A program made the position numbers and the translations under genes. DNA of 64,000 nt from a virus: the IMG/VR virus record IMGVR_UViG_3300020187_000010; one strand, written 5' to 3'. The notes beneath the pieces are model-generated. The model did no database searches and was not told the origin of the DNA. It saw nothing but the letters and a program-made list of their open reading frames with translations. Below, piece by piece: positions 27,140 to 55,847 of the stretch. Positions within the stretch are counted from its first letter, which is position 1. Each line of letters opens with the position of its first letter.

Positions 27140-27142
27140 TTT

Positions 27143-30900: not shown

Positions 30901-32145
30901 AGAACCATCTCCACCTGCATCTGTTACTGAGACCAGACCACGTACTTCTGAGTCTGTTCTTTGTGTGAAAGAGTATCTACCAGTCGCAGAGTCATATGAT
31001 AAATCACCACCGGCAGATAAATGCGCACGGACTTCACTCGCATTTGGGCCAGTGTATGTAAAGATACCTGTGGATGAATCATATGAAAGAGACCCATCAC
31101 CCCCAGCATCGTTTACTGATACTGTGCCACGTGCGTCTGCATCTGTATATTGTGTAATACTTGTCGAGATTTGACCATTGGTGATACCAATACCTGTACC
31201 TGCACTAAAATGTGCACGGACTTCGGCCGCAGAAGGGCCGGTAAAGGAGAACGTACCTGTAGAACTATCATACGAGAATGAACCATCTCCGCCATTGTCA
31301 GTCGCAGATACCGCAGCACGTGCTCTGGCATTGTTGAAATAGAGATTGGTAGAACCACCTTCACTTAAATCATTGGTAGTTTTTAACGCAAAGTCAGAAT
31401 CAAATCCTGCATATGATACTTCGGTATAACCTAGTGTACCAGTTGCAGCGTTATATGTCAACGGTAAACCACTTACACCAATCGCATTTCGTGCGGTAGT
31501 TGTGGTGGTTGCGGAATCGTAATAGAGGTTAGTCGAGCCTTGTGTTAGGTCGTCTGTTGTTTTGGTTGCAAGATCTGTATTGAATAGAGATGTTGCATAA
31601 TATTTGTTTGTGCTACCTTGGGTAAGATCGTCTGTTGTTTTAAGAGCAAGACGATCATCGAATGCGGAGTCTGCACGTGCAGTTGTGTAGTAAAGGTTAG
31701 TCCCTTCACTTAAATCCGAAGTCGAGAAATGTTGCAGACCAATTCGTGCATTGAATGAACCACCATCTGCGGTGGCCAGTGTAAGAGTTGCATTAGAGGA
31801 ATCGAAGGATAACCCCGAAACACCTGCAACAGTAACAGTTCCCGCACTATCAATTTGACCTTGCGCATTGATAGTCAATACTGGAATGGTTGTGGTAGAA
31901 CCATAGGTACCTGCACCGACACCAGTGTTGGTGATACTTAACTCACCGTTGGTCTCGGTAATGCCGGTTCCACCAGATACTTGTCTGAGTGTTACGATAG
32001 AACTAGAGGATGCAGAATCCGTTGTCTTGAAGAAAAGACGACCATCATTTGTGTTGATCGCTAATTCGCCAAGTTCTATATTTGATGTAGTCGGGCTCTT
32101 GCCCTTAACTGCACTTCTCTTTAATCTAAAAAGTGTATTCGACAT
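27916..32145 (-). CDS. Large fibre/structural protein with repeats (1409 aa)
   Basis: N-terminal RLKRS...LGELAINTNDGRLF module; TTDDL.(E/Q)G.TNLYY and YDS.TG repeats; duplicated central domain; C-terminal GSGLDAD.LDG. Confidence 0.75.
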   Translation of the reverse strand: MSNTLFRLKRSAVKGKSPTTSNIELGELAINTNDGRLFFKTTDSASSSSIVTLRQVSGGTGITETNGELSITNTGVGAGTYGSTTTIPVLTINAQGQIDSAGTVTVAGVSGLSFDSSNATLTLATADGGSFNARIGLQHFSTSDLSEGTNLYYTTARADSAFDDRLALKTTDDLTQGSTNKYYATSLFNTDLATKTTDDLTQGSTNLYYDSATTTTTARNAIGVSGLPLTYNAATGTLGYTEVSYAGFDSDFALKTTNDLSEGGSTNLYFNNARARAAVSATDNGGDGSFSYDSSTGTFSFTGPSAAEVRAHFSAGTGIGITNGQISTSITQYTDADARGTVSVNDAGGDGSLSYDSSTGIFTYTGPNASEVRAHLSAGGDLSYDSATGRYSFTQRTDSEVRGLVSVTDAGGDGSLSYNNGTGVITYTGPSASETRAHFSGGTGVTITDGSIAIAQSVGTTDDIVFGKVTVDSAEIGCLHLTKQETAPNSLAGLLYYDSNPQKGISFIPTTNELVQDVTINLGQEHLIYVHNLTGGQINNGDAVYVSGTAHGIHPQISLAKADASSTANVTGIATMDIPNGNHGYVTQFGLVNGLNTSNMIEGAFAYLSADSAGKWSTTEVSIDQGYPTHVGRVISVDSTSGSLLVNVEKEHAEYIRVEDRMIVDGKITADSGDFKLLNVDISSYSDIDVPNNLPAFREGNLFYMQGPDALVYSNSSINVKVGQDEIMRVFNNSGSSIPKGKVVYVTGAANDFPTISLAKADNFSTTYTTSGLASSTIANGAYGYVTVRGLYGGLNTASFNVGDTLHVSPDSAGEMVAFSPDYPNWPYQVGTVLVSDSATGGNVGGCIQIRLAPEIAENIRVQGNQRVDGDVTIAGNLNILGSETTTTVQSLNVGDQFIYVGAGDTIETVFGAGISGLNDATFKEYYEGDSDRTYFVKITGTDSAGDTIQWGFDSAEGIGEFTPLSFDSDGGTGPTSWNLGVDNTLVPLRYNVKVTFSSPTGHTLNNYWKGDAQPINQDFGIVGNYNTIDAPYTHAGVFRDTTDSRWKFFNKYDPEVGGNINTSDPSFELADLQVNRLYGNVTGAVTGNASTANSLLTSRTIGISGDVTGTATSFDGTSNITITTGITANTIVNADINTNAAIADTKLGTISTAGKVQNSATTATSANTASTIVERDGSGNFTATAITANLTGDVTGTVSSLSNHTSTIRNLFSVDNSGLGYDSATGQFSLANPGVDSASTLALFSAANSGTGYGTLSYSNGEFSFAKVTDANIRSAISASTGISITDGAISTTITQYTDTLARGAIGINNNGTGFGSLSYNSGTGTITYNKVTTQNIRDQFSVTGDIAYDSATGQFSVDETYSTANELLTAVKTVDGSGSGLDADVLDGQQGSHYRINVYNSAGTLLN

Positions 32146-32172
32146 TTGTCAACCTTTTCCAATATTGGATAA

Positions 32173-32192
32173 ACCCCCTTATAGAAGGGGGT
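32173..32192 (-). terminator. Stem-loop between fibre genes
   Basis: ACCCCCTT-N4-AAGGGGGT hairpin with a weak U-tract. Confidence 0.5.
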
Positions 32193-32205
32193 GATATTCT
32201 ATTAT

Positions 32206-34197
32206 TTAGTATGTTCCACCATCGAGTGTTGCGATAGTCACAAAACCAGATGTAATGGTGAATTGGTCTGAGTCAAAAGACGCAACACCTTTGTTAGTAT
32301 AACTTGCAATCTCTGCCGCGAATGTGATAGTATTATCACTGTCTTGTGCAGCACCATAGGTAATGTCCATACCTTCACCGGCAGCGAAGAATGTGTTACC
32401 TAGATGGTCTTCGATATATTCACGAAGAACCGTACCATTGCGATAGATCTCACCACCAACATCTAGATCTTTGTTGGTGTTCCACTTGTCTCCTGCAACA
32501 GAGTAAGTGATTGTTGCATTTGCACCATTGACCGTAATACCTGCACCATTTGCAGCGGTCGCATCTGCGGCACTATCTGCAAGAACAAGGTTAAGGTCAT
32601 TGATCGACATAGTAGTCGAGTTAATGATTGTCTGCGTACCCTGTACAACAAGGTCACCCAGTACAAGAACTTGACCACCGTTAGAGTCTCCACCTTTAGG
32701 GTCAAGTACAAGAACCTCGGTAGAACTGTTAGTAGAGATCTTGTTACCATCGATACGAATTGTATCGGTAGTAATACCGGTTAGACCGGTGAGATCTGTA
32801 ATAGTCGCACCAAGTGCAACCGTAGTATCACCTATTGTGATGTCATCATTTACTAAATCTGCATTTGCAATAGACGCAGCCTTCAGACTTACGTGACCAT
32901 TCGATATATCAAAGTCAGTATCTTCGAAAGATGCAATACCTTTGTTGGCACCATTCGCATCTTCACCTTCGATAGAGATGTTAGTACCTGCATGACCTAC
33001 ATTGATACCTTCTCCACCAAGGATAGATACCATGTGACCAGTAATAGGAACAATACCATCATCAGTTGTGATTTGTTTCACTACCGAAGAATCGAGACTT
33101 ACGTCACCAGAGTTGAGTGTGAAGTCACTCGAATTAAATTTAGCGGTACCCAGTTGTGAATACGATGCGGTTCTTGGTGTAATAGTTACTGTTGCACCTG
33201 CACCAGTTACATCCAGACCCTGTACGCCATTACCGAGGATATTGAAATCATGTCCGATAGGAGTTACAGATCCAGAGTCTGTAGTGATGAGTTTTACTAC
33301 ATCATCCACCAAAGATACTGAACCGGAAGTTACATCAAAGTCATCAGAGAGGAACTGAGCAACACCCTTCGAAGAAGTAGTCGCATCATCAATTGCATAG
33401 TCTACAGTATTTGTAGTTGCGGTATATGTAAGAGTGAGACCATTACCGGTTGCGGTAAATGTCAAGTCCGAGTCAAGTAGACTGATAGGATCTGAGTTGA
33501 CAGTCAAGTTTGTTGCAACGTTCGCAACAGAAGCCGCAGTCAAACGACCTTGTGCATCAACTGTGAAAGTTGGAATCTGTGTGGTAGAACCATATGACCC
33601 AGGCGTTACCGCAGTACTGTCTAAGTCAAAAGTAATTGCATCATCAGTAACAGTAGATGTCAGACCTGTACCACCACCGAATGTCAATATACCGGTAGAA
33701 GTATTGAACGTGTCATTAGTACCGTTATCTGCACCGATAGTAAAAGTGTTGGTAGCAATTTGATCATCTACATATCCTTTGTTCGCAGCATCCGAGTCAT
33801 GGGTAGGAGTCGCAACACCGTGAAGTTGTACGTTTAGAAAATCGACTTCATTACCTTGAGTGTCAATTGTAAGTCCACCAGTTACACTGATAGAACTCCC
33901 ATCAATAATAATGTCATCGACTTTTAAAATATCAAGTTTGCTATCCGCATCAACAATGAGTGCACTATTCGGGGTAACTGTGCCTTTGTCATGGTCGAGC
34001 ATTTGAGTGAAGAATTTACCACCAATAACTTCGTGGTTGACTGCATTACCTGCGATTTCAGTACCAGTACCGATATATAAACGGTCACCACCATTGGAAC
34101 CATTATCGGGCAAGTATGAATATGCTAATTCACCTTGGCCAAGTGTGGACGGATCTCCCGAAGTCCCCGACCGTTTTATTCTTAATAATGATGCCAT
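32206..34197 (-). CDS. Fibre/structural protein (663 aa)
   Basis: N-terminal RIKRSGTSG.P..L.QGELAYS module, KG(V/I)A.F...DF repeats, C-terminal LDGGTY. Confidence 0.7.
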   Translation of the reverse strand: MASLLRIKRSGTSGDPSTLGQGELAYSYLPDNGSNGGDRLYIGTGTEIAGNAVNHEVIGGKFFTQMLDHDKGTVTPNSALIVDADSKLDILKVDDIIIDGSSISVTGGLTIDTQGNEVDFLNVQLHGVATPTHDSDAANKGYVDDQIATNTFTIGADNGTNDTFNTSTGILTFGGGTGLTSTVTDDAITFDLDSTAVTPGSYGSTTQIPTFTVDAQGRLTAASVANVATNLTVNSDPISLLDSDLTFTATGNGLTLTYTATTNTVDYAIDDATTSSKGVAQFLSDDFDVTSGSVSLVDDVVKLITTDSGSVTPIGHDFNILGNGVQGLDVTGAGATVTITPRTASYSQLGTAKFNSSDFTLNSGDVSLDSSVVKQITTDDGIVPITGHMVSILGGEGINVGHAGTNISIEGEDANGANKGIASFEDTDFDISNGHVSLKAASIANADLVNDDITIGDTTVALGATITDLTGLTGITTDTIRIDGNKISTNSSTEVLVLDPKGGDSNGGQVLVLGDLVVQGTQTIINSTTMSINDLNLVLADSAADATAANGAGITVNGANATITYSVAGDKWNTNKDLDVGGEIYRNGTVLREYIEDHLGNTFFAAGEGMDITYGAAQDSDNTITFAAEIASYTNKGVASFDSDQFTITSGFVTIATLDGGTY

Positions 34198-34421
34198 TAG
34201 TATTGGCCTCCGTTAACTTCTTGATTGTTTAATTCAGTTTTTGCCTCAAAATTGCCTGTGGATTCACTGAATACTAGAACTGCACCATCCGTAACATTAC
34301 TGGTATCTACACCACCGATATTATTGATATTGCCTGTAGTTGATGTGATACGTCTGATTGGTTTCCCAACAACGACCCTTTTAACTTTAGTTTTTCCTCT
34401 AAGGGATACCGTGACAGCCAT
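34197..34421 (-). CDS. Small virion protein
   Basis: 74 aa, DGAVLVF and C-terminal NGGQY; TAATG coupling to the next gene. Confidence 0.6.
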   Translation of the reverse strand: MAVTVSLRGKTKVKRVVVGKPIRRITSTTGNINNIGGVDTSNVTDGAVLVFSESTGNFEAKTELNNQEVNGGQY

Positions 34422-34425
34422 ATAT

Positions 34426-34785
34426 TTACCTTGTTACCGAAGGTGAGACTTTGATCTTACCCTCTAAAATTCGTTCAATGAGAATATTACCGTCACTATC
34501 ATTGACCGCTAATTCAACGTCATAGACGTAACGTGTTCTGGTATTGAGGGTGTCAGTTTGAGTATTTGTGAGGGATAAAACTGCAATACCATCTGTTGCG
34601 GGTTCGCTAACGATAGTGGTGAAATCTAGGATCTCATCACTGTCAACAGAAGTGTAACTACGTTTCATTTTTGCGTTAACGGTATGTCCAGTCAAGTTTT
34701 TCTTGGAACCGTCAGTTTCCTGAAGGTGCAACTCGATTGCAACGTCTGCGCCTTGATCAATTGTAAAGTCTTCGTAATCTGCCAT
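34426..34785 (-). CDS. Conserved virion adaptor-like protein (beta-sandwich)
   Basis: IDQGAD...LSLTNTQT...RYVYDVE...RILEG.I.V.PSVTR family common in marine T4-like phages. Confidence 0.7.
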   Translation of the reverse strand: MADYEDFTIDQGADVAIELHLQETDGSKKNLTGHTVNAKMKRSYTSVDSDEILDFTTIVSEPATDGIAVLSLTNTQTDTLNTRTRYVYDVELAVNDSDGNILIERILEGKIKVSPSVTR

Positions 34786-34822
34786 TCCAGTTCCCATCAA
34801 ACCAAAGTTGTGTCTATGGTTT

Positions 34823-34830
34823 TATTTATA
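34823..34830 (-). promoter_or_regulatory. T4-type late promoter
   Basis: TATAAATA upstream of the 34785 ORF. Confidence 0.7.
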
Positions 34831-34857
34831 TGTTTTGGAAACTGGAAAACGAGATAT

Positions 34858-35553
34858 TTATTCGTCTGAACTAATTTCTTCGAGTAAATCTTCGCGAAGT
34901 TCAGCGGATAGTTGGGAAGTATCGAAAGTGAAAGATACTGTACATCTCCAACAGTCAGTCTTCGCGGCATGATAGAACAATCTTTCGGGTTCACCGTAAT
35001 GACCAAAGTATGCTGCCTTGCACTGCCACCCTGGCTTATCTTCCATCACCACAACTTCTTTTGATATAGGATCTACATATTCGAATTGACCTTCTCCAGT
35101 TTCCGACCACGTGAAGATCAAATTATACGCTGCTGCATTTGCATTATTGTGCCAAGAGATAAAACCACCGGGCGGATACCATGCGGTTAGTGCATTATTT
35201 TTCACACCCAACCAATTCATAAGTCCTTGATTCATGTGCGCGAGTTCTGCGGTTCTATCTTTTCTTACCGAGGGATGAACCCCGTTATTGAAAAATTCAT
35301 GTCCCTTGCGACCAACACTCATTTCATAACCATACATCTGATCGGGAAATCCTTCGTGTCGGGTTCCTTGATCTAATATTTCTTCCAGATGACCTTTACC
35401 CGCCCAGAAATGTCTATTCCGTGATTCGTGAGAACAACTCTTATGAAATGTTTCCTCGAAGTCAGGGATATCTCTGGTCAAGAAATCTCGATAGGCATTT
35501 AATTTCACCAATAAGTCTTGGTTCATCACCGGAATGTCTTGCATATAACTCAT
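34858..35553 (-). CDS. 2OG-Fe(II) oxygenase-like protein (HxN variant)
   Basis: YPPGGFISWHNN...FYHAA...RCTVSF; clear paralog of 13749-14372 (shared YNLIFTWSETG.G.F, GW.CKA.YFG). Confidence 0.6.
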   Translation of the reverse strand: MSYMQDIPVMNQDLLVKLNAYRDFLTRDIPDFEETFHKSCSHESRNRHFWAGKGHLEEILDQGTRHEGFPDQMYGYEMSVGRKGHEFFNNGVHPSVRKDRTAELAHMNQGLMNWLGVKNNALTAWYPPGGFISWHNNANAAAYNLIFTWSETGEGQFEYVDPISKEVVVMEDKPGWQCKAAYFGHYGEPERLFYHAAKTDCWRCTVSFTFDTSQLSAELREDLLEEISSDE

Positions 35554-36284
35554 ATAATATATCCGTCCTTATCTAATCCACAGGAATAATGTCTGACAAT
35601 AACTTCACCTTCTGGTCTAGTCCTTGCCCAGTTGAATGCGTTATAATAGTTCCAACGCAAATCATCTTCCAAGATACCATACTTCAGGTCTTTGTATTTA
35701 GGTTCTTTCTCGGTCAACCACCAAAGACTGAACTGATCCCATGACCGAAGACTTTCTATATATCCTTCAGGCCACCAGTCACGATCCATTTGTCTGCGTG
35801 TGAGATCCCACCAATCATCCATGAACTCACGTACAATAGGTTTGGTCATATCGTAAAGTGCAACACCACCACATAGAGTGAACTTGGATGGGCCATCGGG
35901 AGTATCAAAACTTCTTTCGGCATAGACATATTCACGATCATCGGTCAATTCAGAGAATAAGATGTCTTCGTCACGTCTTTCCAATTCATCAAAACAAATG
36001 CGGATATCTTCGTGTTCCACTTCCATATCAACATCGAGGTACATGGTTAGGTCATATGGAGAACGAGCCATACCATCTAGTTTTGCACGGTAGTGGGATG
36101 AACACCATTCAACATTATCAAATAAATCTCGGTGTATTTCTTCGAACATCCACTCTTCGCAGAATAGTGTAATCTTCGCATCTTCGTAATAATCCAGAAT
36201 AGATTCTGCTAGATTGATCGCATACCGATAGAAGTTAATCTTATTCGATGCAACCAACACATAACCTTTAGACTTCTCAGACAT
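35550..36284 (-). CDS. GT-A fold glycosyltransferase
   Basis: SPYDLTMYLDVD (DxD), WDQFSLW, RWNYY, IVRHYS. Confidence 0.7.
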   Translation of the reverse strand: MSEKSKGYVLVASNKINFYRYAINLAESILDYYEDAKITLFCEEWMFEEIHRDLFDNVEWCSSHYRAKLDGMARSPYDLTMYLDVDMEVEHEDIRICFDELERRDEDILFSELTDDREYVYAERSFDTPDGPSKFTLCGGVALYDMTKPIVREFMDDWWDLTRRQMDRDWWPEGYIESLRSWDQFSLWWLTEKEPKYKDLKYGILEDDLRWNYYNAFNWARTRPEGEVIVRHYSCGLDKDGYII

Positions 36285-36732
36285 CTTCCTCAACTCCAAG
36301 TTCTTCTTTTAAAAGCAACATAGCAAAAAGATTCGCTTCTACCTTGGACTTTGCTCGTCTAAGTTTAGACTTGAGTTTTCTGTTCTTAGAGTTTTTAATT
36401 TCTTCGGTTTCGAAGATTTCTAATTTATAGTTAAAGAGTTCTTCTAACTTACGTGCACGTGCGTGTTCCACATCACGTTGTTTATCTTCTTCTTTTTCGG
36501 CAGCTTTACGAATCTTACGGTCTTCGGTATTTCTATCTACAGACTCTTCACCTAAAGCATCAATGACTTCATTGAACAATTCATTTTCACTACCATCCTT
36601 ATTCTTGCGACTCAACATCATTACTTGTCGGGTCTCGCGATCCAGATCATCTTTCATTTCTAGGATACAGTTGAGTTTTTCTTTCTCCTCTGTTTCCCAG
36701 AACGCATTATCCATCCATCTTTTATAACTCAT
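36277..36732 (-). CDS. Hypothetical charged helical protein (possible assembly chaperone)
   Basis: 151 aa, GGAG RBS, overlaps the start of the glycosyltransferase gene. Confidence 0.65.
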   Translation of the reverse strand: MSYKRWMDNAFWETEEKEKLNCILEMKDDLDRETRQVMMLSRKNKDGSENELFNEVIDALGEESVDRNTEDRKIRKAAEKEEDKQRDVEHARARKLEELFNYKLEIFETEEIKNSKNRKLKSKLRRAKSKVEANLFAMLLLKEELGVEEDV

Positions 36733-36781
36733 TTCAGTTCTCCAATTGTATATTATTTACATTATACTATATATCAAAAGA

Positions 36782-39700
36782 TTAAGCAACCCTTACGTAC
36801 AAGGTATATGTCTCAATCACTCCTGTTCCGGAATCAACAGTTGTTCCGGTATAATTACCAGTAAAGTTTCTGGCATAATTTCCTGCGAATGTTCTACTAT
36901 AGTTACCCGCAAAACCTCTACTATAATTACCAGTAAAGTCACCTAAGTATGACGAGGTTCTAGTTCTAGTAGAATCTATGGTATATGCTGAATTTCGACT
37001 TCTACTAAAAGTGGATACTCTAGTTCGTGCAGAGGTTCTGACCGAAGTTCTTGAGTAGTCCCCAACAAAAGTTCTACTATAGTTACCAGTAAAGTCTCCG
37101 ACATAATTAGAAGATCGGGTTCTTGCATATTCACCAACAAAGGTTCTATTGTAGTTACCCACAAAGTTACCCGCAAAGTCTGAAGTAGAATCCCGAGTAT
37201 ATTCTCCTACAAAGTTTCTGTTGTAGTTACCAACAAAATCTCCTACGAAAGTCCGGCCATAATTACCACCAAATATTCTTGAGAAGTTACCAGTGTATTC
37301 TCCTACAAAATCAGTCGCACGAGTTCTTGCATATTCTCCCACAAAGTTTCTGTTGTAGTTGCCGACATAGTTACCCGCAAAACCTCTTGCATAGTTACCA
37401 ACAAATCCTCTATTGTAGTTACCGACAAAATTACCCGCGAATGTACTGATACTATTTCTTGTGTATTCCCCAACAAAAGTTCTATTGAAATTGCCGGTAT
37501 AATTACCCCCAAATCCACGATTGTAATTACCTGCGAATGCACGAGCATAGTCACCAATAAAGTTTCCAATAGAGTCGGTTACCCGAGTCCTAGAATAGTT
37601 ACCTGCGAATGCACGAGCATAGTTACCTTCAAATGCACGAGTCGAAGTGCGGAGAGATATACGGGTATAGTTACCAACGAATCCTCTATTATAGTTACCG
37701 ACAAAATTACCTGCGAATGTACTGATACTATTTCTGGTATAGTTTCCGGTAAAGGTTCTACCATAGTCACCAACAAAGTTTCCAATAGAGTCGGTTATAC
37801 GAGTTCTTGCGTAGGCAGATACACGATTACGAATATAAGACGATGCACGAGTACGTATATATGTGGATATTCTACTACGGGTCGATATACGAGTATATTC
37901 ACCAGTATAGTTGCCGGTGTAGTTGCCTGCAAATCCACGAGTATAATCACCAGTGAAATTACCTGCGAACGTGCGAGTATAGTTCGATGACAATGTGAGC
38001 ATATCAGTGATACTAGGACTTGCTGCGTTTGTAGTATCATCTACACGAGGTTCCCAGAACTGTTGATTGGTCGCGGTATCTGTTGAGTAATACAAGTATG
38101 TTCTGTGGTATGCAGTAGTGTTACCACTCCAGACAAAATCATTCTGAGCGGATACAACTTTCTCACCCGCCATATTATAGATACCAGAGTCAGCATGAGC
38201 CGCACCGGTACCAGAACCTTCGGGGAAAACGTGACCGACTACCAAAAACCATTCGTTTTGAGATTCGGTACCATACCACCAACCTCTCGCTTGGAAGTAC
38301 GGATTACTGTTAGATGCACCATTACTTCTGTTCAATACTGTTCCGCCAACACCAAGATAGAATGAACCATTACCAATAACTTTACGTCTTACCCATGTAG
38401 AGAATCTGTATAGTTTGGTTTTATCAACTGAGAAAGCTGAAGTATTCCAACCACCATCTGCATTAGATGTCGCATCTTGATTTGACACATCCCAAACGAT
38501 ATCAGTACCCTTCGGAGAAGTGTCGGAAATACGTGAGTTACCGTCCCCGTTCTGATTATAGTTAGTTGCAGAACCAGTACCAACTGTCCAAGCAGGAAAG
38601 TTCTGCCACAACAAGTTAGATTGATCTGAGTAACGTGTACCAGTTGTACCTACGAACTGAACGATACTATCACGAGTTGATGTACGAGTATACGTAGAAC
38701 TTCTGTTTTGAATACGAGTTCTTGTGTAATTACTAGGTCTACTGCGTGTAGATATTCTAATGTATGCGGATGATCTACTACGTGCCGATATACGAGTATA
38801 TGTGGAGAGACGGCCGCGGGTCGATGGGTTTATTGAAGTGCGAATATATGAAGAATTTCTACTACGGGTCGATATTCTAGTATACGCAGAGATGCGAGTT
38901 CGCGAATAGTCACCTATAAAGTTTCGCGAATAGTTTCCTATGTAGTCTCCGGTATAATATCCAATGCGAGTGTAGTCGCCTATGTAGTCACCTGCATAAG
39001 ATCCAATGCGAGTATAGTCACCCGTAAAGTCACCTGCGTAATATCCAATGCGAGTAAAGTATAATGGAGTTATTCTATTACGAATAGATATGCGAGTATA
39101 GTCTCCGGTATAGTACAATGTGCGAGTATAGTTACCGATGTAATATAGAGTTCGAGTATAGTCGCCTGTATAATACAATGTACGAGTATAGTTACCGGTG
39201 TAATATAGAGTTCGAGTATAGTCGCCCGTAAAGTTACCTATATAATATCCGGTTCGGATATAGGTATCGATTCGATTCGAAGTACGGGTACTTGTTCTAA
39301 TGTACGTACCGGTTCCAATTCTAGTACGTATAGATGTTCTGATATAATATCCGGTCGCAGTTCTGGTTCTCGAAGAATATCTCAGGTAATTCGCAACCCC
39401 CAAATAATCACCGGTATAATACACTGTCTGTTTAACTATTCGAGTATAGTCACCTACATAGTTAACTATTCTATTATAGTTACCTACAAAATTACCAACA
39501 TAATACAATGTACGAGTGTAGTTACCTGTGAAATTACCAATGTAATACAATGTACGAGTGTAGTTACCTGTGAAATCACCTGCATAATATGATGTACGTT
39601 GGTAGTATAATGTAGCAATTCTGTCTCTTATTGATATACGTTGGTAGTTACCAGTCGCAATTCTGGTACGAATATATGTTCCGGTGGCAGTTCTGGTACG

Positions 39701-42142
39701 AATATATGTTCCGGTGGCAGTTCTGGTTCTGATATAGTCACCAGTTGCAATTCTTATACGAGTATAATTTCCGGTATAGTTACCAGTATAGGTCGAATCA
39801 CGAGTATATGTTAAAATTCGACTACTAGTTCGAAGACTCGTTCGGATATAGTTGAGTGTGCGAACTGAAGTTCGAAGACTCGTTCGGATATAGTTGAGTG
39901 TGCGAACTGAAATACGTGTGCTGTTTCTGGTATATGCAGAAGGACGAGTACGGCCATATTCTCCTACGAACCCTCTATTATAATTGCCAGTATAATTGCC
40001 AGCAAACGCACGAGTATAATTTCCGGTATAGTTACCAATGTAGTTTCCGGCAAATGTTCTTTGGTAGTTACCAGTATAGTCGCCAGCAAACGCACGGTTA
40101 TAATTTCCGGTATAGTTACCAGCAAATGATCTACCATAGTCGCCGACATAATTACCGACAAATGTTCTTGCGTAATTACCACCAAAGTTACCGACATATC
40201 CTTGGAATCTGTCGCGAGTATATGTTACCAATGAATTCCGTGAAGAAATACGAGTGTAGTTGGAACCTCTTGTTCTTGCACTAATACGTGTTGATATACG
40301 AGAATAGTTGCCGGTATAGTCACCCGCAAACCCACGTGAATAGTTACCTATAAATGTTCTATTATAATTACCAACAAATGTTCTATTATAGTTACCAACA
40401 TAGTCACCGGTAAAAGTTACAAGTCTATCCCGAACATAATTGGAAACTCGGCCACGAGTGTAGTTACCAATAAAGTCACCGGTAAAGTCTGTTACTCGAT
40501 CACGTGTATATGCGGATATTCTCGTGCGTGTATAATTGCCTGTATAATTACCTGCATAATTAGAAACACGAATTCTTGCGTATGCAGAGATACGAGTACG
40601 GCCGTAGTTACCAACATAGTTACCGGTAAAAGTCGTTAGTTGATCTCTGGTGTATGTGGAGCTTCTAGTTCGGGTATATGCGGAGATACGAGTACGGGTA
40701 CTTATTCTAGAGTATGATGATACTCTGTTACGTGCATAGTTGCCAACAAAGTCGCCAATAAAGGATGTTACTCGATCACGAATATATGCACTGGTACGTG
40801 TTCGCGAATATGTTGATATGCGATTACGTGAGTATGTTCCTGCGTATGCGGATACTCTAGTACGGGAATAATCCCCAACAAAATTACCAATATAGTTTCC
40901 CGAAAACACGGTTGTGTATGTAGATGTTCTGTTACGAGTATATGTACTCAACCTGTTGCGAATACTATTTCTACTGTATGCAGATACTCTTGTTCTAGAA
41001 TAATTGCCTACAAAGTTACCTGTGAAAGTATTGATACTATCTCTGGTATATGCAGAAGATCTATTGCGAACATACTCGCCCACAAAGATTCTAGAGAAAG
41101 TATCAGTACTGTTTCTAGTGAAAGTTGAAGCACGGTTTCTTGTGTACTCACCTACGTAATTACCGACATACTCACCCACATAATCTCTGATATATTGTCC
41201 CGAAAAGTTTCGAGTGTAGTTGCCAATATAATTTCCACCAAAATCTCGGGTGAACGTATTTGTGCTATTACGAGTGTATAGTGAAGTTCTTGTTCTTGCG
41301 TATGCGGATGAACGATCACGAGTATAAGAAGATGCACGAGTACGAACATATGCAAGTTCTGAAGTTGTTCTTTTAGTATTGGTCGCAGTACCTTTTGCGG
41401 CCCAAGTTCCTGCACTTACCGGAGTTCCCTGAGTCGCAGATCTTAATTGGTAAGAACCAATATTACCCACCTTTCCCCTAAGAGTTTTACAGTGTTGTCC
41501 ATAAGTGTAAGTAATCTGGTTAACAGATTGTTCTTGTAATCCACCAAAACTGGCGGCAGAACCTGACCCAATCATACCAATCGGAGACGTGGCTGTCGGT
41601 GCAGTCATTGCATCACGTTGGTAGATATTGTATACTGTAGAAGTTCCGTTACCTAATGTATCTGTGTATACAGCGGGGATAAATGTACCATAGTCCGCAC
41701 TAGGTGCAGAAGAACCGAGGTAAAAGGTGCCTGGATAATCAGATATTGCAATACGTGCATTCAGACGAGTACATAAGGTATCCATATCTACATCAGTAAA
41801 TTCATGAATACCTACATCACCCGAAGTGTTCCAACCAACCGGTCTGTTATAAAAACTACCAGTATAGTTCGCATCATTAGATAGTTGTCTTAGATTAGTC
41901 GTAGTTGTGCCGGAAGTGATAGATGATGCGGGATGGGTACCATCAGGTTCATTGTAGAAAGTATCAACGAAAGAACCAATGATAGTACCACTAGAGAGAT
42001 GCAAGTCTCCCGCAGAAGAACCCGAAGAATTCTTTAGTTGAATACCTGCAAGATAGGCGAGATAGTTCTCTTCCGTAGGAGTCATCTCCTTCAGATCACC
42101 ATTCGTACCTTCTAACTTTAGTGGGATATCAGATGCGGCCAC
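36782..42142 (-). CDS. Giant self-complementary tetrapeptide-repeat protein A (1786 aa), predicted beta-hairpin filament with an inserted globular domain
   Basis: GTG start; ~265-aa N-terminal domain shared with the paralog; xGxY/xRxR/xSxY/xRxF words; 221-aa insert; C-terminal ETYTLYVRVA. Confidence 0.85.
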   Translation of the reverse strand: MAASDIPLKLEGTNGDLKEMTPTEENYLAYLAGIQLKNSSGSSAGDLHLSSGTIIGSFVDTFYNEPDGTHPASSITSGTTTTNLRQLSNDANYTGSFYNRPVGWNTSGDVGIHEFTDVDMDTLCTRLNARIAISDYPGTFYLGSSAPSADYGTFIPAVYTDTLGNGTSTVYNIYQRDAMTAPTATSPIGMIGSGSAASFGGLQEQSVNQITYTYGQHCKTLRGKVGNIGSYQLRSATQGTPVSAGTWAAKGTATNTKRTTSELAYVRTRASSYTRDRSSAYARTRTSLYTRNSTNTFTRDFGGNYIGNYTRNFSGQYIRDYVGEYVGNYVGEYTRNRASTFTRNSTDTFSRIFVGEYVRNRSSAYTRDSINTFTGNFVGNYSRTRVSAYSRNSIRNRLSTYTRNRTSTYTTVFSGNYIGNFVGDYSRTRVSAYAGTYSRNRISTYSRTRTSAYIRDRVTSFIGDFVGNYARNRVSSYSRISTRTRISAYTRTRSSTYTRDQLTTFTGNYVGNYGRTRISAYARIRVSNYAGNYTGNYTRTRISAYTRDRVTDFTGDFIGNYTRGRVSNYVRDRLVTFTGDYVGNYNRTFVGNYNRTFIGNYSRGFAGDYTGNYSRISTRISARTRGSNYTRISSRNSLVTYTRDRFQGYVGNFGGNYARTFVGNYVGDYGRSFAGNYTGNYNRAFAGDYTGNYQRTFAGNYIGNYTGNYTRAFAGNYTGNYNRGFVGEYGRTRPSAYTRNSTRISVRTLNYIRTSLRTSVRTLNYIRTSLRTSSRILTYTRDSTYTGNYTGNYTRIRIATGDYIRTRTATGTYIRTRTATGTYIRTRIATGNYQRISIRDRIATLYYQRTSYYAGDFTGNYTRTLYYIGNFTGNYTRTLYYVGNFVGNYNRIVNYVGDYTRIVKQTVYYTGDYLGVANYLRYSSRTRTATGYYIRTSIRTRIGTGTYIRTSTRTSNRIDTYIRTGYYIGNFTGDYTRTLYYTGNYTRTLYYTGDYTRTLYYIGNYTRTLYYTGDYTRISIRNRITPLYFTRIGYYAGDFTGDYTRIGSYAGDYIGDYTRIGYYTGDYIGNYSRNFIGDYSRTRISAYTRISTRSRNSSYIRTSINPSTRGRLSTYTRISARSRSSAYIRISTRSRPSNYTRTRIQNRSSTYTRTSTRDSIVQFVGTTGTRYSDQSNLLWQNFPAWTVGTGSATNYNQNGDGNSRISDTSPKGTDIVWDVSNQDATSNADGGWNTSAFSVDKTKLYRFSTWVRRKVIGNGSFYLGVGGTVLNRSNGASNSNPYFQARGWWYGTESQNEWFLVVGHVFPEGSGTGAAHADSGIYNMAGEKVVSAQNDFVWSGNTTAYHRTYLYYSTDTATNQQFWEPRVDDTTNAASPSITDMLTLSSNYTRTFAGNFTGDYTRGFAGNYTGNYTGEYTRISTRSRISTYIRTRASSYIRNRVSAYARTRITDSIGNFVGDYGRTFTGNYTRNSISTFAGNFVGNYNRGFVGNYTRISLRTSTRAFEGNYARAFAGNYSRTRVTDSIGNFIGDYARAFAGNYNRGFGGNYTGNFNRTFVGEYTRNSISTFAGNFVGNYNRGFVGNYARGFAGNYVGNYNRNFVGEYARTRATDFVGEYTGNFSRIFGGNYGRTFVGDFVGNYNRNFVGEYTRDSTSDFAGNFVGNYNRTFVGEYARTRSSNYVGDFTGNYSRTFVGDYSRTSVRTSARTRVSTFSRSRNSAYTIDSTRTRTSSYLGDFTGNYSRGFAGNYSRTFAGNYARNFTGNYTGTTVDSGTGVIETYTLYVRVA
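39661..39726. repeat. 30-bp tandem repeat (IRTRTATGTY)
   Basis: TTCTGGTACGAATATATGTTCCGGTGGCAG twice, plus a partial third copy. Confidence 0.85.
39827..39910. repeat. Perfect 42-bp tandem duplication (VRTLNYIRTSLRTS)
   Basis: AGTTCGAAGACTCGTTCGGATATAGTTGAGTGTGCGAACTGA twice. Confidence 0.9.
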
Positions 42143-42175
42143 AAATTCACTTCTCTAATTTATTAAACTTATTTC

Positions 42176-42183
42176 TATTTATA
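42176..42183 (-). promoter_or_regulatory. T4-type late promoter upstream of repeat protein A
   Basis: TATAAATA about 34 nt before the GTG. Confidence 0.75.
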
Positions 42184-42190
42184 AGTTTAT

Positions 42191-45100
42191 TTATGCGGTT
42201 CTTACATACAGAGTATATGTTTCAACTGAGAATGTAGTATCCCTAATAGTCTGACCCACGTAGTCTCCTACAAAGTCTCTGGAATAATTACCGGCAAAGT
42301 TTCTACTATAATTACCGGTATAGTTGCCGCCAAAATCTCTAGTACTTGTTCGAGTAGACTCTCTAGTATATGAAGATCCTCTAGTTCTGGTGTATGTAGA
42401 CCCACGATTTCTTATAAAGTTTGTATTACTTACACGGGTATAGTTGGAGTTTCTATTTCTGGTAAACTCACCAGTATAATCACCGACATAATCCGCAGCA
42501 TAAACTCCAACGTATGTAGATGCTCTTAAAGTTATGTATGACGAAACCCGAGATCTACTGAAAGAATCGAACCTTGTTCTGGCTGATATTCGTGTGAAAT
42601 CTCCGGTATAGTTGCCGCCAAAATCTCTTGTGTAATTACCTGCAAAGTTTCTTGAGTAAGACGATACCCGAGTTCTGATATATGTCGAATAACGATCATT
42701 TAAACTAACTCTGGTAAATAGACCTGCATAATTACCGGTATAGTTACCGGCAAAGTCTCTCGTATATTCACCGGTATAGTTACCAGTATAGAGTGAAACC
42801 CTAGTCCGTATATAATTACTGTTTCTTTCTCGGGTAAAGTCTCTTGCATACTGTCCCGAGAAAGTAGAAGACCTAGTCAGTATATAATTACTGTTTCTTT
42901 CTCGGGTAAAGTCTCTTGAATATTGTCCCGAGAAAGTAGAAGATCTAGATCTTATGTAACTAGAATCTCTATTTCTGGTAAAGTCCCTCGCATATTCTCC
43001 CGCAAAAGTAGAAGATCTAACTCTTATGTAATTCGAATTTCTAGTTCTTTCATAGTTTCTTGAGTATTCGCCAACAAACAATCTATTATAACTTGATACT
43101 CTGGCTCTTTCGAAGTTTCTTGAGTATTCCCCAGCAAACTCTCTAGAATAAGTAGATACCCGAGTCCTAGTAAATTCGCGAGTGAATCCCTGCAAATATG
43201 AACTGACTCTTGTGAAATCACCAATGTATGAAGGAACCGTCCTAGTAGCTATAAAGTCACCGGTATACGTAGCGGGGCCAGCAAAGTAAAGACCACCACC
43301 CGATTTGTCGTATCTGACAGAATTCACAAATCCCGCAAAAGTAGATGTACTGTTACGAGTATATTCTCCTCCCGGCAATCCCAAATAACCAGCACCCACA
43401 AAGTCTCTTGTGTAATCACCAGTATAGTATAAAGTACCTTTTAGGTATTCTGCACGAGCTCGTGTATAATTACTTACTCTAACACCACCATATGTGGATG
43501 TCGAAGTGCGTGTAAAGTTTAATGTTCGAGTGAAGTTGCCAATATATGTTGAGAAACGAGTTCTGCTGAAGTTTCTATTATATGTAGAAATTCTATCTCT
43601 TGTATAGTCACGTGCATATTCACCAACAAAGGCTCTATTATATGCTGAACTTCTATCTCTAGTGAAGTCACGTGCATAGTTACCAATATATGTGGCAGTA
43701 TAATTGCCAGTGTAAGTTGATGACCTAATTCTAGTGAAGTCACGTGAATATTGTCCAGAGAAAAATCTGGAGTAATTGCCAGTGTAAGTTGATGACCTAA
43801 TTCTAGTGAAGTTACGTGCATATTGTCCAGAGAAAAGTCTGGTATAATCGCCAGTGTAATTAGAATTTCTAATTCTAGTGTAGTCACGTGCATATTGTCC
43901 AGAGAAAAATCTGGTGTAATCGCCAGTGTAATTAGAATTTCTACTTACTATTCTTGTTCTGGTATAGGTAGATGTTCTAGCACGTGTCGAGATTCGTGTA
44001 TATTCACCTACATAGTTACCAGCATAGTTGCCAAGAAACATTCTAGTATAGTTGCCGGTAAAGTCTCTGGAATAATTAGATGTACGAGTTCTACCATAAG
44101 CCGATTCCCGAGTCCGTGTGAAGTCTCTGGTATAATTGCCTGTAAATTCACCGGCATATGAACTGATACGTGTCGCTATGAAATCTCTAAAAAAGGTACG
44201 TGAAAAGTTGCGACTGAAGTTACCTGTGTAATTTCCAATATAGTTGCCTGTAAAGTCTCTAGAATAGTCTCCGACAAAAGTTCTACCATAGTCGCCAGTA
44301 AAATCACCGGTATAATTGCCCGTAAATTCTCTGGTATAGTTTCCTATAAATTCTCTGGTGTAATTGCCTGTGAATTCACCGGCATATGAAGTTGTCCCTG
44401 TGCGAGTGTAATCATCAGCGTAAGCCGAAGGTCTAGTTCTCGTGTATAAAGATGCTCGTGTGCGAGTATAGTTCTGTTCACTGACAACACGAATGGTGTT
44501 TGCAGCACTACCTACATTCTTCCAAGTACCACCGACAGGTATACCCTGCGAAGAAGTTCTAAGTTCATATGATCCGACCGCACCATCAATTGCACGTCTG
44601 GTTTTCGCACGTTGACCAATAGTCACTTGAACTTGACGATCTGTTAATGCTTGTAATCCTTCATAAGTACCAGAGGCGCCACTACTTCTCTTCAGTCCCG
44701 CGAGAGTGACCGAAGTTGGAGCAGTCATTGCAGTTCTACGCCATATACTATAGTCATTTACAGTATATGGGTTCCCCGAAGAGTCAGCACGTTGATCATG
44801 CAAAACACTAGGGACTAGAATGTCATAGTCTGCACTAGGTCTGGTCGAAGACAACTTGAGAGAGCCTGGATAGTCAGATAGTGCGATACGACCATTGATA
44901 TCATCGATGAAAGTGTTCAGATCATTATCCGACATTTCATATACATTACTTTCATAATGTCCGACTGGTTTTCTCCAATCACTATCATTCTCTAGTGCGG
45001 TACCATTGATCTGATATAAATTTGTTGTGGTGGTAATAACCGATTGGGCATTATATGGATGAGTTCCAACGGGTTCTGGATAATAGGTATCCGTCAGAGA

Positions 45101-45277
45101 TCCAAGAGACCTATTTCCACTTGCACTGAGCGTAAGAAGCCCTACATCGCTACTGTCCGCAATTGCGTTCTGTAGTCCTGCGAGGTAGGCAACATAATTT
45201 TTCTCGGTTGCATTTATCTGTTGGAGATTACCATTAATGTCTTTTAATTTTAACGGTAATGTCTTATTATCTGACAT
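42191..45277 (-). CDS. Giant self-complementary tetrapeptide-repeat protein B (1028 aa)
   Basis: Paralog of A (PLKL, NY.AYLAG, SDYPG, AMTAPT, GSY.LR; C-terminal ETYTLYVRTA) with the same word vocabulary. Confidence 0.85.
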   Translation of the reverse strand: MSDNKTLPLKLKDINGNLQQINATEKNYVAYLAGLQNAIADSSDVGLLTLSASGNRSLGSLTDTYYPEPVGTHPYNAQSVITTTTNLYQINGTALENDSDWRKPVGHYESNVYEMSDNDLNTFIDDINGRIALSDYPGSLKLSSTRPSADYDILVPSVLHDQRADSSGNPYTVNDYSIWRRTAMTAPTSVTLAGLKRSSGASGTYEGLQALTDRQVQVTIGQRAKTRRAIDGAVGSYELRTSSQGIPVGGTWKNVGSAANTIRVVSEQNYTRTRASLYTRTRPSAYADDYTRTGTTSYAGEFTGNYTREFIGNYTREFTGNYTGDFTGDYGRTFVGDYSRDFTGNYIGNYTGNFSRNFSRTFFRDFIATRISSYAGEFTGNYTRDFTRTRESAYGRTRTSNYSRDFTGNYTRMFLGNYAGNYVGEYTRISTRARTSTYTRTRIVSRNSNYTGDYTRFFSGQYARDYTRIRNSNYTGDYTRLFSGQYARNFTRIRSSTYTGNYSRFFSGQYSRDFTRIRSSTYTGNYTATYIGNYARDFTRDRSSAYNRAFVGEYARDYTRDRISTYNRNFSRTRFSTYIGNFTRTLNFTRTSTSTYGGVRVSNYTRARAEYLKGTLYYTGDYTRDFVGAGYLGLPGGEYTRNSTSTFAGFVNSVRYDKSGGGLYFAGPATYTGDFIATRTVPSYIGDFTRVSSYLQGFTREFTRTRVSTYSREFAGEYSRNFERARVSSYNRLFVGEYSRNYERTRNSNYIRVRSSTFAGEYARDFTRNRDSSYIRSRSSTFSGQYSRDFTRERNSNYILTRSSTFSGQYARDFTRERNSNYIRTRVSLYTGNYTGEYTRDFAGNYTGNYAGLFTRVSLNDRYSTYIRTRVSSYSRNFAGNYTRDFGGNYTGDFTRISARTRFDSFSRSRVSSYITLRASTYVGVYAADYVGDYTGEFTRNRNSNYTRVSNTNFIRNRGSTYTRTRGSSYTRESTRTSTRDFGGNYTGNYSRNFAGNYSRDFVGDYVGQTIRDTTFSVETYTLYVRTA

Positions 45278-45291
45278 TCTCTTTCCTACTA

Positions 45292-48200
45292 TTAGTTTAG
45301 AAGAGTACCGTTTTCGTCATAGATTAAGACAGTTCTAGATGCCAGTTCATTTAACGCTTTAACAATACTATCATTATTTATACCTTCAAAGAAGTTGCCT
45401 GGCGCAGAACTGTCAAGTGTATTCAACTGACCAACTCGATTACTCAAGTTTAGAATGTCTGTGTCATTACTTGTGACTCTACCCTTTACGACTTCAATTT
45501 CACCAACCGCACTATCCAGTTGGGTGTGGATCTCATTGATAGCCGGAACAATAAACTTACTTGTTGTATCCAGTGTGGAGATACCTGTTCCTGACATGTT
45601 CGCAGTTGTACCACCGGACTGTATAATGTCCAGATGCGCACGGGTTATAAGTTTCTCGGACTCTATCTCGGTAACTGCACTATCTAGTTGCAAATGAAGT
45701 TCATTGATACCACCCGCAACATCTTGTGCGGTAGTGTCTAGATCTTCGTCAGTGTGGAATGCACGACCATGTATCTCTACCTTAGTTGCATCCATTTCGA
45801 TTGCAAGACCAGTACCAGAATAAATGTCCAGATGATTGCCAGAGTTTCGGAATTCACCAAACTGAACGGTTGCATCTTTAAGGAATACATTACCACCGTC
45901 TGCATCAAGTGTAATATCACCGGAGACATCATACGTCAGATTTCCTACAACATCAACTTCTTGGTTTGTACCAAGGTTATAGGTGAACTTAGTTACACCG
46001 CCATCCTTGAAGAAGATGTCCGCGCCATTCGCGTCAAGTGTAATATCACCTTCTGCATCAAGAAGAATATTTGTTCCTGCATTGATGGTTGCAGTTGTTC
46101 CTGCGGTAGTAGATGTAGATCCACCGGCAGTCTGTACAATACTACCTGTAGTAGTCAGACCATACGAGTCCGCACTATCATTTAATGCACCGATGATAGC
46201 ATTTACTAATGTGCCACCAACAGTAGTAGTTTTGTTTACAGTAATATTCTCTTTTACCGAACCACCAATAGTTAGACTATAACCATTTGTAGTAGTCAAA
46301 GATGCAGAATCACTTACCGATATATTATAATCTCCGGTAACAGTGATGTTGTTTGTTGCACCTAATTGATGACGGATGCGTGTGGATGCACCGTCTTTGA
46401 AGTAAATGTCGTTTCCATCTGCGTCAAGTGTAATATCACCAGAAGCATCGATCAAGTAATTACCATCTGCTGTATGGGTTTGTCCCAATGATGTTGTGGT
46501 CAATGTACCCAAAGTAGTATGAGACATTGCACCACTAGAAGTAACTGAGTAAGTACCACCAGCACTATCAGATTGGTTACCTGATACAGTTTGTGTAAGA
46601 TTACCGTTAACATCTAAAGTGTTTGACGCACCCATTCCATATGAGAAACGAGAAGTACCTGCATCTTTGAAGTCGATGTCTCCACCGTCTGCATCCAGTA
46701 CTATATCACCTGCCACATCGACAGTTAAGTTGCCGGTGGGTACGTCAATCTCTTGATTCGCACCCATAACGAAGTCGAATCTGATCGCCCCATTATCTTT
46801 AAGTGTAACATTACCGCCATTTGCATCAAGGTTAATATCACCCTCAACATCTGCGGTTAGGTTACCACCAGCGGTAAGACCCATGTTTGATTCAGTAACA
46901 AGATTGAACGCACCACCCGCAGTATTCGTCATCGGGCCACGAGTGTCGATATTAATACCGTTAGTCGAAGAGATGTCACGAGTACCAGAAGCACTGTCAG
47001 AGTGATCTCCTGCCACTGTAAGGGTGTTGTTACCCGAAGTAGTAGTAGTGAGTGTACCTGTAACATCTAAAGTATTTGCTGAACCCAGTCCGTAAGCAAA
47101 ACGAGTCGTTCCAGCTTGTTTGAGGTCAATGTCACCACCACCGGCATCCAATACAATATCATTGACAACATCAAAGATCAACGAACCGACAACATCAATC
47201 TCTTGATTCGTACCGAAATTATATGTTACCTTATTGGCACCACCATCTGTTAGATATAGTTGTCCACCATCAGCATCGAGAGTAATATCTCCAGATGCAT
47301 CAACAGTGAAGTTTCCCGCCACATTATGGGTTTGTCCCAATGATGTTGTGGTGAGAGTACCAAGAGTGGTATGAGACATCGCACCAGTTGAGGTGATGTC
47401 ACGAGTACCATTTGCACTGTCTGAGAAGTTGCCTGAGACGGTTTGAGTTAGATTACCTGTAATGTCTAAGGTATTAGATGCACCAAGTCCGTATTCAAAT
47501 CTAGATACTCCACCGTCTTTTAGGTCGATGTTTGCGCCATCTGCGTCTAATATAATATTACCAGACACATCAAGAGTATAATTGCCAGTTACGGCTTCGG
47601 TGTTAGTGGTACCCATCGTATATGCAATACGAGTAACACCACCATCTTTGTATGTAATGTTTGCCCCATCTGCATCGAAGATTATATCACCCGAGATGTC
47701 AAATGTCAAGTTTCCGGTACGAGAAACTGTACCGTCAGTAGCAAAGTCGTACTCTGTGACACCAGCATCTTTGAATGTGACATTACCACCATCAGCATCA
47801 AGGATAATATCTCCGGACGCATCGACAGTGTATGTGGTCGTTTCTATTCTAGTTGCACCGGTAGAGGTAAGAGTTGTATCACCAGATACATCGATATCTA
47901 AGTTAGAAGAAATATCAAGATCAAGGATACCAGTCACACCAACTGTGTTAGTGGTACCTAATGTGAATGCAATACGACTGACCGAATCATCAAGGAAGTT
48001 GATGTTAGATCCACCGGCATCTAAATTAATATCACCTACCGCATCAACGTTGAAGTTTGCACCGACATTGAATTGTACATCAGTACCACTTGCTTGATTA
48101 GTACTGATTAGTAAACGAGTTTGAGTTTCCCCTTGGAGGGCATTTCCCGTAGGATAAATGATTTCACCGGAAGATGCGTCAAACACTCTTTCGATTTCGT

Positions 48201-55834: not shown

Positions 55835-55847
55835 TTTTTATATATTC

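Follow-up and report, generated by a model that had tools for sequence, protein, structure and literature searches.

The 64,000-nucleotide (nt) stretch of IMG/VR virus record IMGVR_UViG_3300020187_000010 considered here (the window, meaning that whole stretch) comprises the structural and replication region of a T4-like phage that is uncultured and aquatic, and every gene in it lies on the minus strand. Between its baseplate genes and its neck genes, a position corresponding to the 'host recognition cluster' of PMC7029224, it codes for two tail fibres of repetitive sequence (B and A), followed by a trio of small genes that specify a 151-amino acid (aa) charged protein, a glycosyltransferase (GT) and an oxygenase-like protein with a double-stranded beta-helix (DSBH) fold. 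In the direction of transcription the order is fibre B, fibre A, the 151-aa gene, the GT gene, the DSBH gene, an LtfC-like gene, a 74-aa gene, a 663-aa gene and a 1409-aa fibre-like gene (Table 1). A preliminary description of this region had read the three small genes as a phage-encoded pathway that assists folding of, hydroxylates and glycosylates the fibres.

The trio appears to be embedded in a late transcription unit that begins with a fibre gene. The window has 11 copies of the T4-type late-promoter-like motif TATAAATA, where 4.5 would be expected; all of them are on the coding strand, and none of 100 shuffles got to 11. One copy precedes fibre A, as the preliminary description had it; it stands at the -10 position 34 nt before the start of the gene and is the only one to serve both this fibre and the trio; it is absent from the spacer between fibre A and the 151-aa gene. 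The next such motif follows right after the stop codon of the DSBH gene and starts a further late unit with the LtfC-like gene. The GT reading frame shares 8 nt (ATGTCTGA) with that of the 151-aa gene and 4 nt (ATGA) with that of the DSBH gene, and a simple scan of the minus strand from 34000 to 46000 found no terminator-like sites, so that the overlapping, uninterrupted arrangement given earlier also stands. The unit thus has the form of a T4-type late unit, with the motif upstream of its first gene and with neither a second motif nor a terminator inside it. Hence, as judged from the nucleotide sequence, the trio is translationally coupled and belongs to the late transcription unit of the fibre.

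Table 1. Features of the window that bear on the fibre and trio region, followed by other genes of the window
Feature	Position	Strand	Basis or remark
Fibre B, 1028 aa	42191-45277	-	conserved N-terminal domain of ~260 aa, period-4 aromatic tetrad repeats, C-terminal ETYTLYVR-x-A tail
Fibre A, 1786 aa	36782-42142	-	GTG start; N-terminal domain (aa 1-260), tetrad repeats, globular insert, C-terminal ETYTLYVRVA tail
Globular insert within fibre A, aa 1141-1400	37943-38722	-	comparison with the nearest relative
151-aa protein	36277-36732	-	directly after the fibre gene; without family assignment
GT, 244 aa from ATG	35550-36284	-	in-frame upstream TTG at 36299 gives 249 aa
DSBH protein, 231 aa	34858-35553	-	PHD2/prolyl-4-hydroxylase fold (predicted model)
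Late-promoter-like motif TATAAATA	45375..45382	-	~100 nt upstream of fibre gene B
Late-promoter-like motif TATAAATA	42176..42183	-	before fibre A
Late-promoter-like motif TATAAATA	34823..34830	-	before the LtfC-like gene
LtfC-like tail-fibre assembly protein	34426-34797	-	phrog_3304 (E 3.4e-13), phrog_1084 (E 8e-21)
DSBH paralog, 207 aa	13749-14372	-	37% identical to the fibre-linked copy, His-x-Asn kept
Tail-tube-fold gene	14373-14873	-	own TATAAATA at 14898
Baseplate wedge genes	54464-59842	-	PHROG matches
Large baseplate protein, 1960 aa	48572-54454	-	phrog_358
1013-aa protein	45292-48333	-	gp5/baseplate-hub-type matches in PHROG search
Neck and sheath-stabiliser genes	24612-27904	-	PHROG matches
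Cytidylyltransferase-like (rfaE-type) nucleotidyltransferase	10716-11204	-	PF01467 (E 3.3e-13), phrog_7878 (E 6.3e-33); replication part of the window
Peroxiredoxin (Redoxin)	5010-5540	-	E 4.6e-22; replication part of the window
JmjC_2-domain protein	1253-1786	-	E 1.1e-9; replication part of the window

The same organization recurs in relatives of this phage. A megablast search of the region against 50,697 phage records recovered no match, and tblastn recovered a single deposited relative, phage C48C1 (Kyanoviridae), in which the same gene order follows a 3347-aa fibre; a search of the literature on this phage found nothing relevant. A scan of IMG/VR with a profile of the GT detected at least 226 stretches, from phages of marine, estuarine and freshwater samples, of which the 80 best loci were inspected. 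In every one of these GT-seeded loci with upstream sequence, the homolog of the 151-aa gene is preceded by a fibre that has period-4 repeats and the same N-terminal domain, with two extra open reading frames (ORFs) between them in one locus (L071). The reverse test, seeded with a profile of the fibre N-terminal domain, gave the same picture: all 47 loci that reach past the fibre, be it single or a tandem pair, continue into the 151-aa gene, the GT gene, the DSBH gene and the LtfC-like gene. The linkage holds for fibres of 421-3346 aa, including an Arg-poor type with Phe in place of Tyr (L097) and a short type with few tetrads (L154). None of the informative loci examined in public phage contigs (more than 100) departs from the order of fibre, trio and LtfC-like gene, and the co-occurrence check proposed in the preliminary description revealed no exceptions in these contigs. 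The promoter motif is placed alike: among distinct loci, 64 of 65 have it in front of the LtfC-like gene and 37 of 49 in front of the fibre. The idea of an internal late promoter for the 151-aa gene was rejected, as the motif precedes that gene in none of 66 loci.

Sequence searches with the two fibres against Pfam, PHROGs and PDB (phmmer and profile) yielded no annotation. In the repeats of both fibres an aromatic residue recurs at each fourth position, with an autocorrelation of 0.4-0.75 at lags 4, 8 and 24. In tandem fibre pairs the N-terminal domain of the type seen in fibre A is found in the first fibre of the pair. Comparison of fibre A with its nearest relative (L002:4071-9515) showed 1598 of 1815 positions to be identical overall (88%), with only ~65% identity in the globular insert, which is probably the receptor-binding part of the fibre. 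Insertions of 14 residues occur at two separate places in this relative, in TRTLYY-type and in IRTRTATG-type repeats, and look like matched duplications on the two arms. Homologs of the insert at 33-37% identity are annotated as 'virion structural proteins' in Vibrio phages of ~228-254 kb (e.g. F86 and 6E35.1a), indicating that this domain has been shuffled between very different phages.

The preliminary description had pointed to the many N-x-S/T sequons of the repeats and had proposed the Arg/Tyr-rich filaments as the substrate. The sequons are abundant (56 in fibre A and 33 in fibre B) and, in the repeat parts of the two, exceed composition shuffles (31 against 18.2 expected, z 3.6; 28 against 14.4, z 4.4), an excess that is due to the repeated word G-N-[YF]-[ST]. 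Yet among 85 trio-linked fibres Ser or Thr follows G-N-[YF] in just 44% of 3471 tetrads, with a per-fibre range of 0-0.75, and the sequon was therefore rejected as an acceptor code. The composition of these fibres likewise ranges widely (Arg 1-15%, Tyr 4-15%), and both the Phe-type fibre of L097 and the nearly repeat-free one of L154 still have the trio, on which grounds Arg/Tyr richness was rejected as a defining feature of the substrate. The repeat parts contain little Pro (median 0.7%) and almost no Lys, and the N-terminal domain has three invariant Pro residues. What remains constant in trio-linked fibres is the x-G-[ND]-[YF] tetrad together with the domains at either end, i.e. this N-terminal domain and the C-terminal tail; the variable sequons and the Arg/Tyr content are therefore traits of the repeats of this particular phage and not of the constant partner of the trio. 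The shortest trio-linked fibres (~440 aa) are typified by L154:9986-11302 (plus strand), where six PTNYAG and four AVNYLGE-type units replace the long tetrad arms and are flanked by two near-identical DFVGTFETTFTG segments.

The GT has no named counterpart in the sequence databases searched: it gave no Pfam match even at E 10 (PF01501 included) and no PHROG or PDB sequence match, and a profile of its family run against PDB sequences recovered only Heparosan synthase B (E 0.2) over the DxD region. Its 244 homologs at E <= 0.001 are all metagenomic and either unnamed or 'hypothetical'. An AlphaFold2 model (pLDDT 90.3) displays a GT-A fold, and Foldseek searches with it recovered LgtC (E 1.7e-7) and glycogenin (E 2.6e-7) as top matches. 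VIA-align superimposed the model on human glycogenin-1 (3t7n_A) with a Z-score of 17.1 and a root-mean-square deviation of 3.5 over 196 residues, followed by the Skp1 alpha-galactosyltransferase (6mw5, Z 15.2), LARGE1 (14.9), GlyE (14.8), LgtC (14.7) and the capsid glycosyltransferase of PBCV-1 (14.3). In the numbering of the ORF that starts at TTG, the DxD motif D89-V-D91 shows no variation in sets of 30 and of 78 distinct homologs, and C143-G144, D188-Q189 and H237...K244 are unchanged in the 78. These invariant positions appear to be the four hallmarks of GT8 enzymes, their equivalence to the residues of LgtC and glycogenin being inferred from the order of the motifs. The protein thus resembles glycogenin and other GT8 enzymes (LgtC, Gat1, GlyE and LARGE1) in possessing a GT-A fold over ~195 of 249 residues together with the DxD, x-G-G, D-Q-x-x-L and H-x-x-G-x-x-K motifs, and several of these relatives glycosylate proteins in the cytoplasm. 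It differs from them in its low identity (13-17%), its minimal size of 244 aa, its being encoded by a phage and its fixed place in an operon behind a fibre gene. In the absence of a family-profile match it is filed as GT8-like by fold and motifs and not as a member of the curated PF01501 family. The GT is a single-copy gene both in phage C48C1 and in the nearest record, which stands in here for the phage of the window itself.

The DSBH protein is comparably isolated at the sequence level, without a match in Pfam (PF13640 included), PHROG or PDB; Pfam and PHROG searches also drew a blank for 34 diverse members of its family. These searches apart, 671 homologs were obtained at E <= 0.001, all of metagenomic origin and almost none of them named, and a profile search of the whole library organized the family into 656 representative clusters. 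The AlphaFold2 model (pLDDT 93.9) comprises a double-stranded beta-helix core preceded by N-terminal helices; Foldseek matched it to the Pseudomonas putida prolyl-4-hydroxylase (P4H) structure 4j25 (E 4e-6), and VIA-align gave Z-scores of 11.4 to PHD2 (3oui) and 11.0 to 4j25_F with ~150 residues aligned. Its signature is Y126-P-P-G-G-F-I-S-W-H135-N-N137, followed by H195 and then R203-x-T205. In trio-linked copies Y126, W134, H135-x-N137, H195 and R203-x-T205 are invariant (H135, N137, H195, R203 and T205 in 85 copies), and in the 34 diverse members, at 24-49% identity to the protein of the window, Y126, W134, H135, N137, W176, H195 and R203 are invariant. The Arg/Lys-x-Ser/Thr motif that in such oxygenases holds the C5-carboxylate of 2-oxoglutarate (2OG) on the last core strand is present as R203-x-T205, 8 residues past H195 and on a strand of the model (203-210). 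The spacings (His to His 60, His to Arg 8) equal those of PHD2 (H313, H374 and R383); on this basis Asn137 occupies the place of the iron-binding Asp. The protein is accordingly like the PHD/P4H enzymes (PHD2, PPHD of P. putida, PhyA of Dictyostelium and vCPH of PBCV-1) in fold (Z 11.4 to 9.8 over ~150-160 residues), in the Y-P-x-G...H signature and in spacings, and unlike them in its invariant Asn in place of Asp, in the lack of a PF13640 match and in occurring in several copies within a phage. Both enzyme folds proposed in the preliminary description, that of a DxD glycosyltransferase and that of an oxygenase, are thus borne out, but a canonical oxygenase is not supported.

In a search of 185,579 prokaryote species genomes, made with a tighter family profile after a profile of very diverse members had proved too loose, the DSBH family turned up at five loci, all on contigs of metagenome-assembled genomes (MAGs), four of which also carry fibre or virion genes of this type of phage. 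From its sequence record, the family is a large, uncharacterised one that occurs almost only in phages and keeps a predicted ligand-binding site without the canonical triad. It is also represented a second time in the window, so that exclusivity of the oxygenase-like gene to the fibre is not supported. The paralog abuts (TAAATG) the gene with the tail-tube fold, which has its own TATAAATA motif, and lies beside uvsY; the order of major capsid protein gene, tube-like gene, DSBH paralog and uvsY is also found in phage C48C1, which has three DSBH copies in all, and in two MAG-binned phage contigs. Since both copies of the window end a late unit begun by a virion gene, the arrangement fits a role in virion morphogenesis, albeit without proving it.

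A 5.4-kb contig (L182:26-1619, plus strand) encodes a GT homolog that is remote (E 2.6e-34 against the profile of the family) and is directly followed by a His-x-Asn protein of 25% identity, the upstream context being cut by the end of the contig. In a MAG-binned phage contig (L179:5347-5973, plus strand) the GT and the His-x-Asn protein are separated by an additional, canonical PF13640 oxygenase (E 1.5e-12, with H-K-D...H...R-N-S).

Charged residues make up 47% of the 151-aa protein (22% K+R and 25% D+E), which lacks Pro and has no hydrophobic segment. Its homologs share an N-terminal W..NAFWE segment and a basic C-terminal KLE..F..EIKNSKNR.LK.KLRR segment. Pfam, PHROG and PDB sequence searches gave it no name, and its look-alikes in the ESM Atlas are only unnamed viral clusters with scores below 0.9. 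No membrane segments were detected in any of the three trio proteins. The LtfC-like protein encoded next reaches 20.3 bits against PF23926, under the cutoff of 27.

A hydroxylase paired with a glycogenin-like transferase has a precedent in the hydroxyproline glycosylation of Skp1, in which the prolyl hydroxylase PhyA acts together with glycosyltransferases, the last of them the glycogenin-like Gat1 (bioRxiv 10.1101/764241). The phage module would be similar in that a cytoplasmic PHD-type protein and a glycogenin-like GT are devoted to one dedicated protein (for the phage, putatively the fibre), and both Skp1 enzymes were recovered in the structural comparisons (6t8m with the DSBH protein and 6mw5 with the GT). 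The Skp1 pathway differs in that its target residue is Pro, three further transferases take part and Gat1 adds the last sugar rather than the first, whereas in the phage the repeats are almost free of Pro and the hydroxylase-like protein is non-canonical. Virion glycosylation by phage-encoded enzymes is known from mycobacteriophages, according to PMC12582341, which cites Freeman et al. 2023 (PMC10527164). These systems and A64R of PBCV-1 (PDB 2p72, Z 14.3) are comparable to the phage module in that a viral GT-A enzyme is encoded along with structural genes, with decoration of the virion proposed or shown. They differ in their hosts, in acting on the capsid and tail tube rather than on a repeat fibre on the baseplate side, and in being without a DSBH protein or a small helical partner.

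Beyond the identities of the genes at the level of fold and motif, the structure of the operon and its strict synteny, all of which the analysis shows, we infer what the substrate is, which chemistry takes place and in what order, and tentatively favour, at slightly less than an even chance, a reading in which the trio is a tailoring or maturation module dedicated to the fibre. The three proteins would be cytoplasmic products of late infection, translated from the transcript that also encodes the tetrad-repeat tail fibre. The GT, whose model has glycogenin as its nearest structural relative, would be an active, metal-dependent, retaining transferase of the GT8 type that most likely puts a sugar on Ser, Thr or Tyr hydroxyls of the fibre or of a conserved end of it. 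The DSBH protein might catalyse an Fe/2OG reaction of atypical kind on this substrate too or, alternatively, serve as a partner that holds it, and the helical, charged 151-aa protein could function as an adaptor or chaperone for this pair. Counted in support of such a module, besides the folds, motifs and linkage described above, are the adjacency of the remote GT and His-x-Asn pair in L182, the added oxygenase in L179, the position of the DSBH paralog at the end of a late unit and the want of membrane segments.

Several observations weigh against this proposal. The His-x-Asp/Glu...His facial triad is not found in the DSBH protein, since the Asn is invariant in sets of 29, 34 diverse and 85 sequences, and the missing carboxylate ligand renders its oxygenase activity uncertain; by analogy with AspH, a 2OG oxygenase that is active with a two-His site (PMC13168262), such activity may still exist. 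The DSBH family is not exclusive to fibres, having paralogs elsewhere in the genome, and none of the candidate acceptors, i.e. sequon Asn, Arg or Tyr, is conserved across trio-linked fibres. Fused forms of the GT were not encountered among longer proteins, which is weak evidence. The co-occurrence with the fibre is phylogenetically non-independent, because all the loci come from one T4-like clade with a broadly syntenic structural module. Contigs from four RNA-labelled libraries span 33913-37412, i.e. the 3' end of fibre A, the trio and the next genes; these contigs, of 2.4-14 kb, might reflect DNA carry-over and are broken inside the fibre repeats. Finally, the GT8 genes that pelagimyophages and cyanomyophages carry in their 'host recognition cluster' have been read as modifiers of the host O-chain (PMC7029224).

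This last interpretation leads to the main competing explanation, which we regard as unlikely: that the GT8-like protein and its partners alter the lipopolysaccharide (LPS) or another surface glycan of the host late in infection, masking the receptor, which would save progeny from being lost on debris, or excluding competitors, and stand beside the fibre only because both concern the receptor. LgtC, an LPS galactosyltransferase, is indeed among the top structural matches of the GT, and the rfaE-type nucleotidyltransferase gene of the window could point in the same direction; its product could supply an activated sugar. The cluster of PMC7029224 occupies the same genomic position and GT8 genes are noted there among the tail fibres; that study differs from the present one in treating the GTs as variable, LPS-related auxiliary genes and describes neither a fixed operon of fibre plus trio nor a His-x-Asn protein (the word 'oxygenase' occurs 0 times in its text). 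In contrast to the other enzymes of that island, described as variable, the module considered here is invariant. Moreover, it appears to be expressed only late and jointly with the fibre gene, whereas exclusion of competitors would require early expression, and VIA-align places glycogenin (Z 17.1) above LgtC (Z 14.7). The GT is 100% identical to that of the nearest relative even though the fibre insert has diverged to ~65%, and the enzyme is therefore not tracking receptor specificity.

A second, improbable, alternative is that the trio consists of non-catalytic assembly factors, comparable to T4 gp57A and gp38, for the folding or trimerisation of the long fibre, the His-x-Asn protein being a pseudo-oxygenase and both enzyme folds having been co-opted for binding. 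The DSBH protein without a carboxylate ligand, the adjacent LtfC-like assembly gene and the 151-aa protein, which with its charge and lack of Pro is like phage fibre chaperones by composition only, agree with this, and PMC13278062 proposes a non-enzymatic role for the glycogenin-like transferase of Skp1. Yet the DxD, DQ and His...Lys residues of the GT are invariant in 78 sequences, as expected of an enzyme, and the retention of both His residues, the Arg-x-Thr and the Tyr in DSBH proteins of even ~25% identity speaks for a conserved ligand-binding site and not for a decayed one.

There is also a small chance that the enzymes act elsewhere, either on other virion proteins or, in the case of the DSBH protein, on a sugar-nucleotide or small molecule before its transfer by the GT. 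DSBH paralogs at other structural loci and the lack of a conserved acceptor residue type in the fibre repeats would suit such a role; strict adjacency and translational coupling to a fibre family of very different lengths, and the single-copy state of the GT, argue for the fibre-dedicated module instead. The collagen-like pathway of the preliminary description, with an oxygenase that hydroxylates Arg or Tyr of the repeats and a GT that glycosylates sequons or the new hydroxyls, is very improbable: both enzyme folds are present and sequons are numerous beyond composition shuffles, but conservation is lacking both for the sequon (44% overall and 0% in one fibre or more) and for Arg/Tyr richness, the repeats are almost without Pro or Lys and the triad reads His-x-Asn. 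Moreover, retaining GT-A enzymes of the GT8 type are not known to act as N-glycosyltransferases. Thus, of that description its observations endure, namely the genes, their folds, the single late unit and the co-occurrence, while the details concerning sequons, Arg/Tyr, a canonical oxygenase and exclusivity to the fibre do not.

As for the distribution of this phage, 98-100% of sampled words of 32000-48500 are present in DNA runs labelled marine and estuary, and contigs from RNA-labelled runs with freshwater or aquatic labels are 95-99% identical to the same segment, indicating that the phage or its close relatives span a range of salinity. All assemblies of this segment break within the fibre repeats.

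A more far-reaching version of the fibre-dedicated module, which must be considered unlikely, is that the phage-restricted His-x-Asn class of DSBH proteins comprises Fe/2OG enzymes with a two-His-plus-Asn site, each paralog being wired behind the virion gene whose product it modifies, and that the fibre copy, the GT and the helical adaptor together build a covalently decorated tetrad-repeat fibre. If true, this would be the first pathway of virion-fibre glycosylation among T4-like phages whose hosts are Gram-negative or aquatic, and would add a new metal-site chemistry to the superfamily. By analogy, the module would extend two known kinds of system, virus-encoded glycosylation of virions and tailoring of proteins by a hydroxylase plus a GT. 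Tail fibres determine which host cells can be infected, and their covalent decoration by phage enzymes is documented only for few systems, such as the capsids and tails of mycobacteriophages and the capsids of chloroviruses. Should the proposed role of the trio be true, it would provide a testable substrate for the many oxygenase-like and GT8 genes that are orphans in marine T4-like phages and are now read as LPS modifiers, and would make the 656 representative clusters a defined family whose His-x-Asn metal site is unusual. It would also mean that the sequence of the fibre alone is insufficient to describe the surface that these phages show to their hosts.

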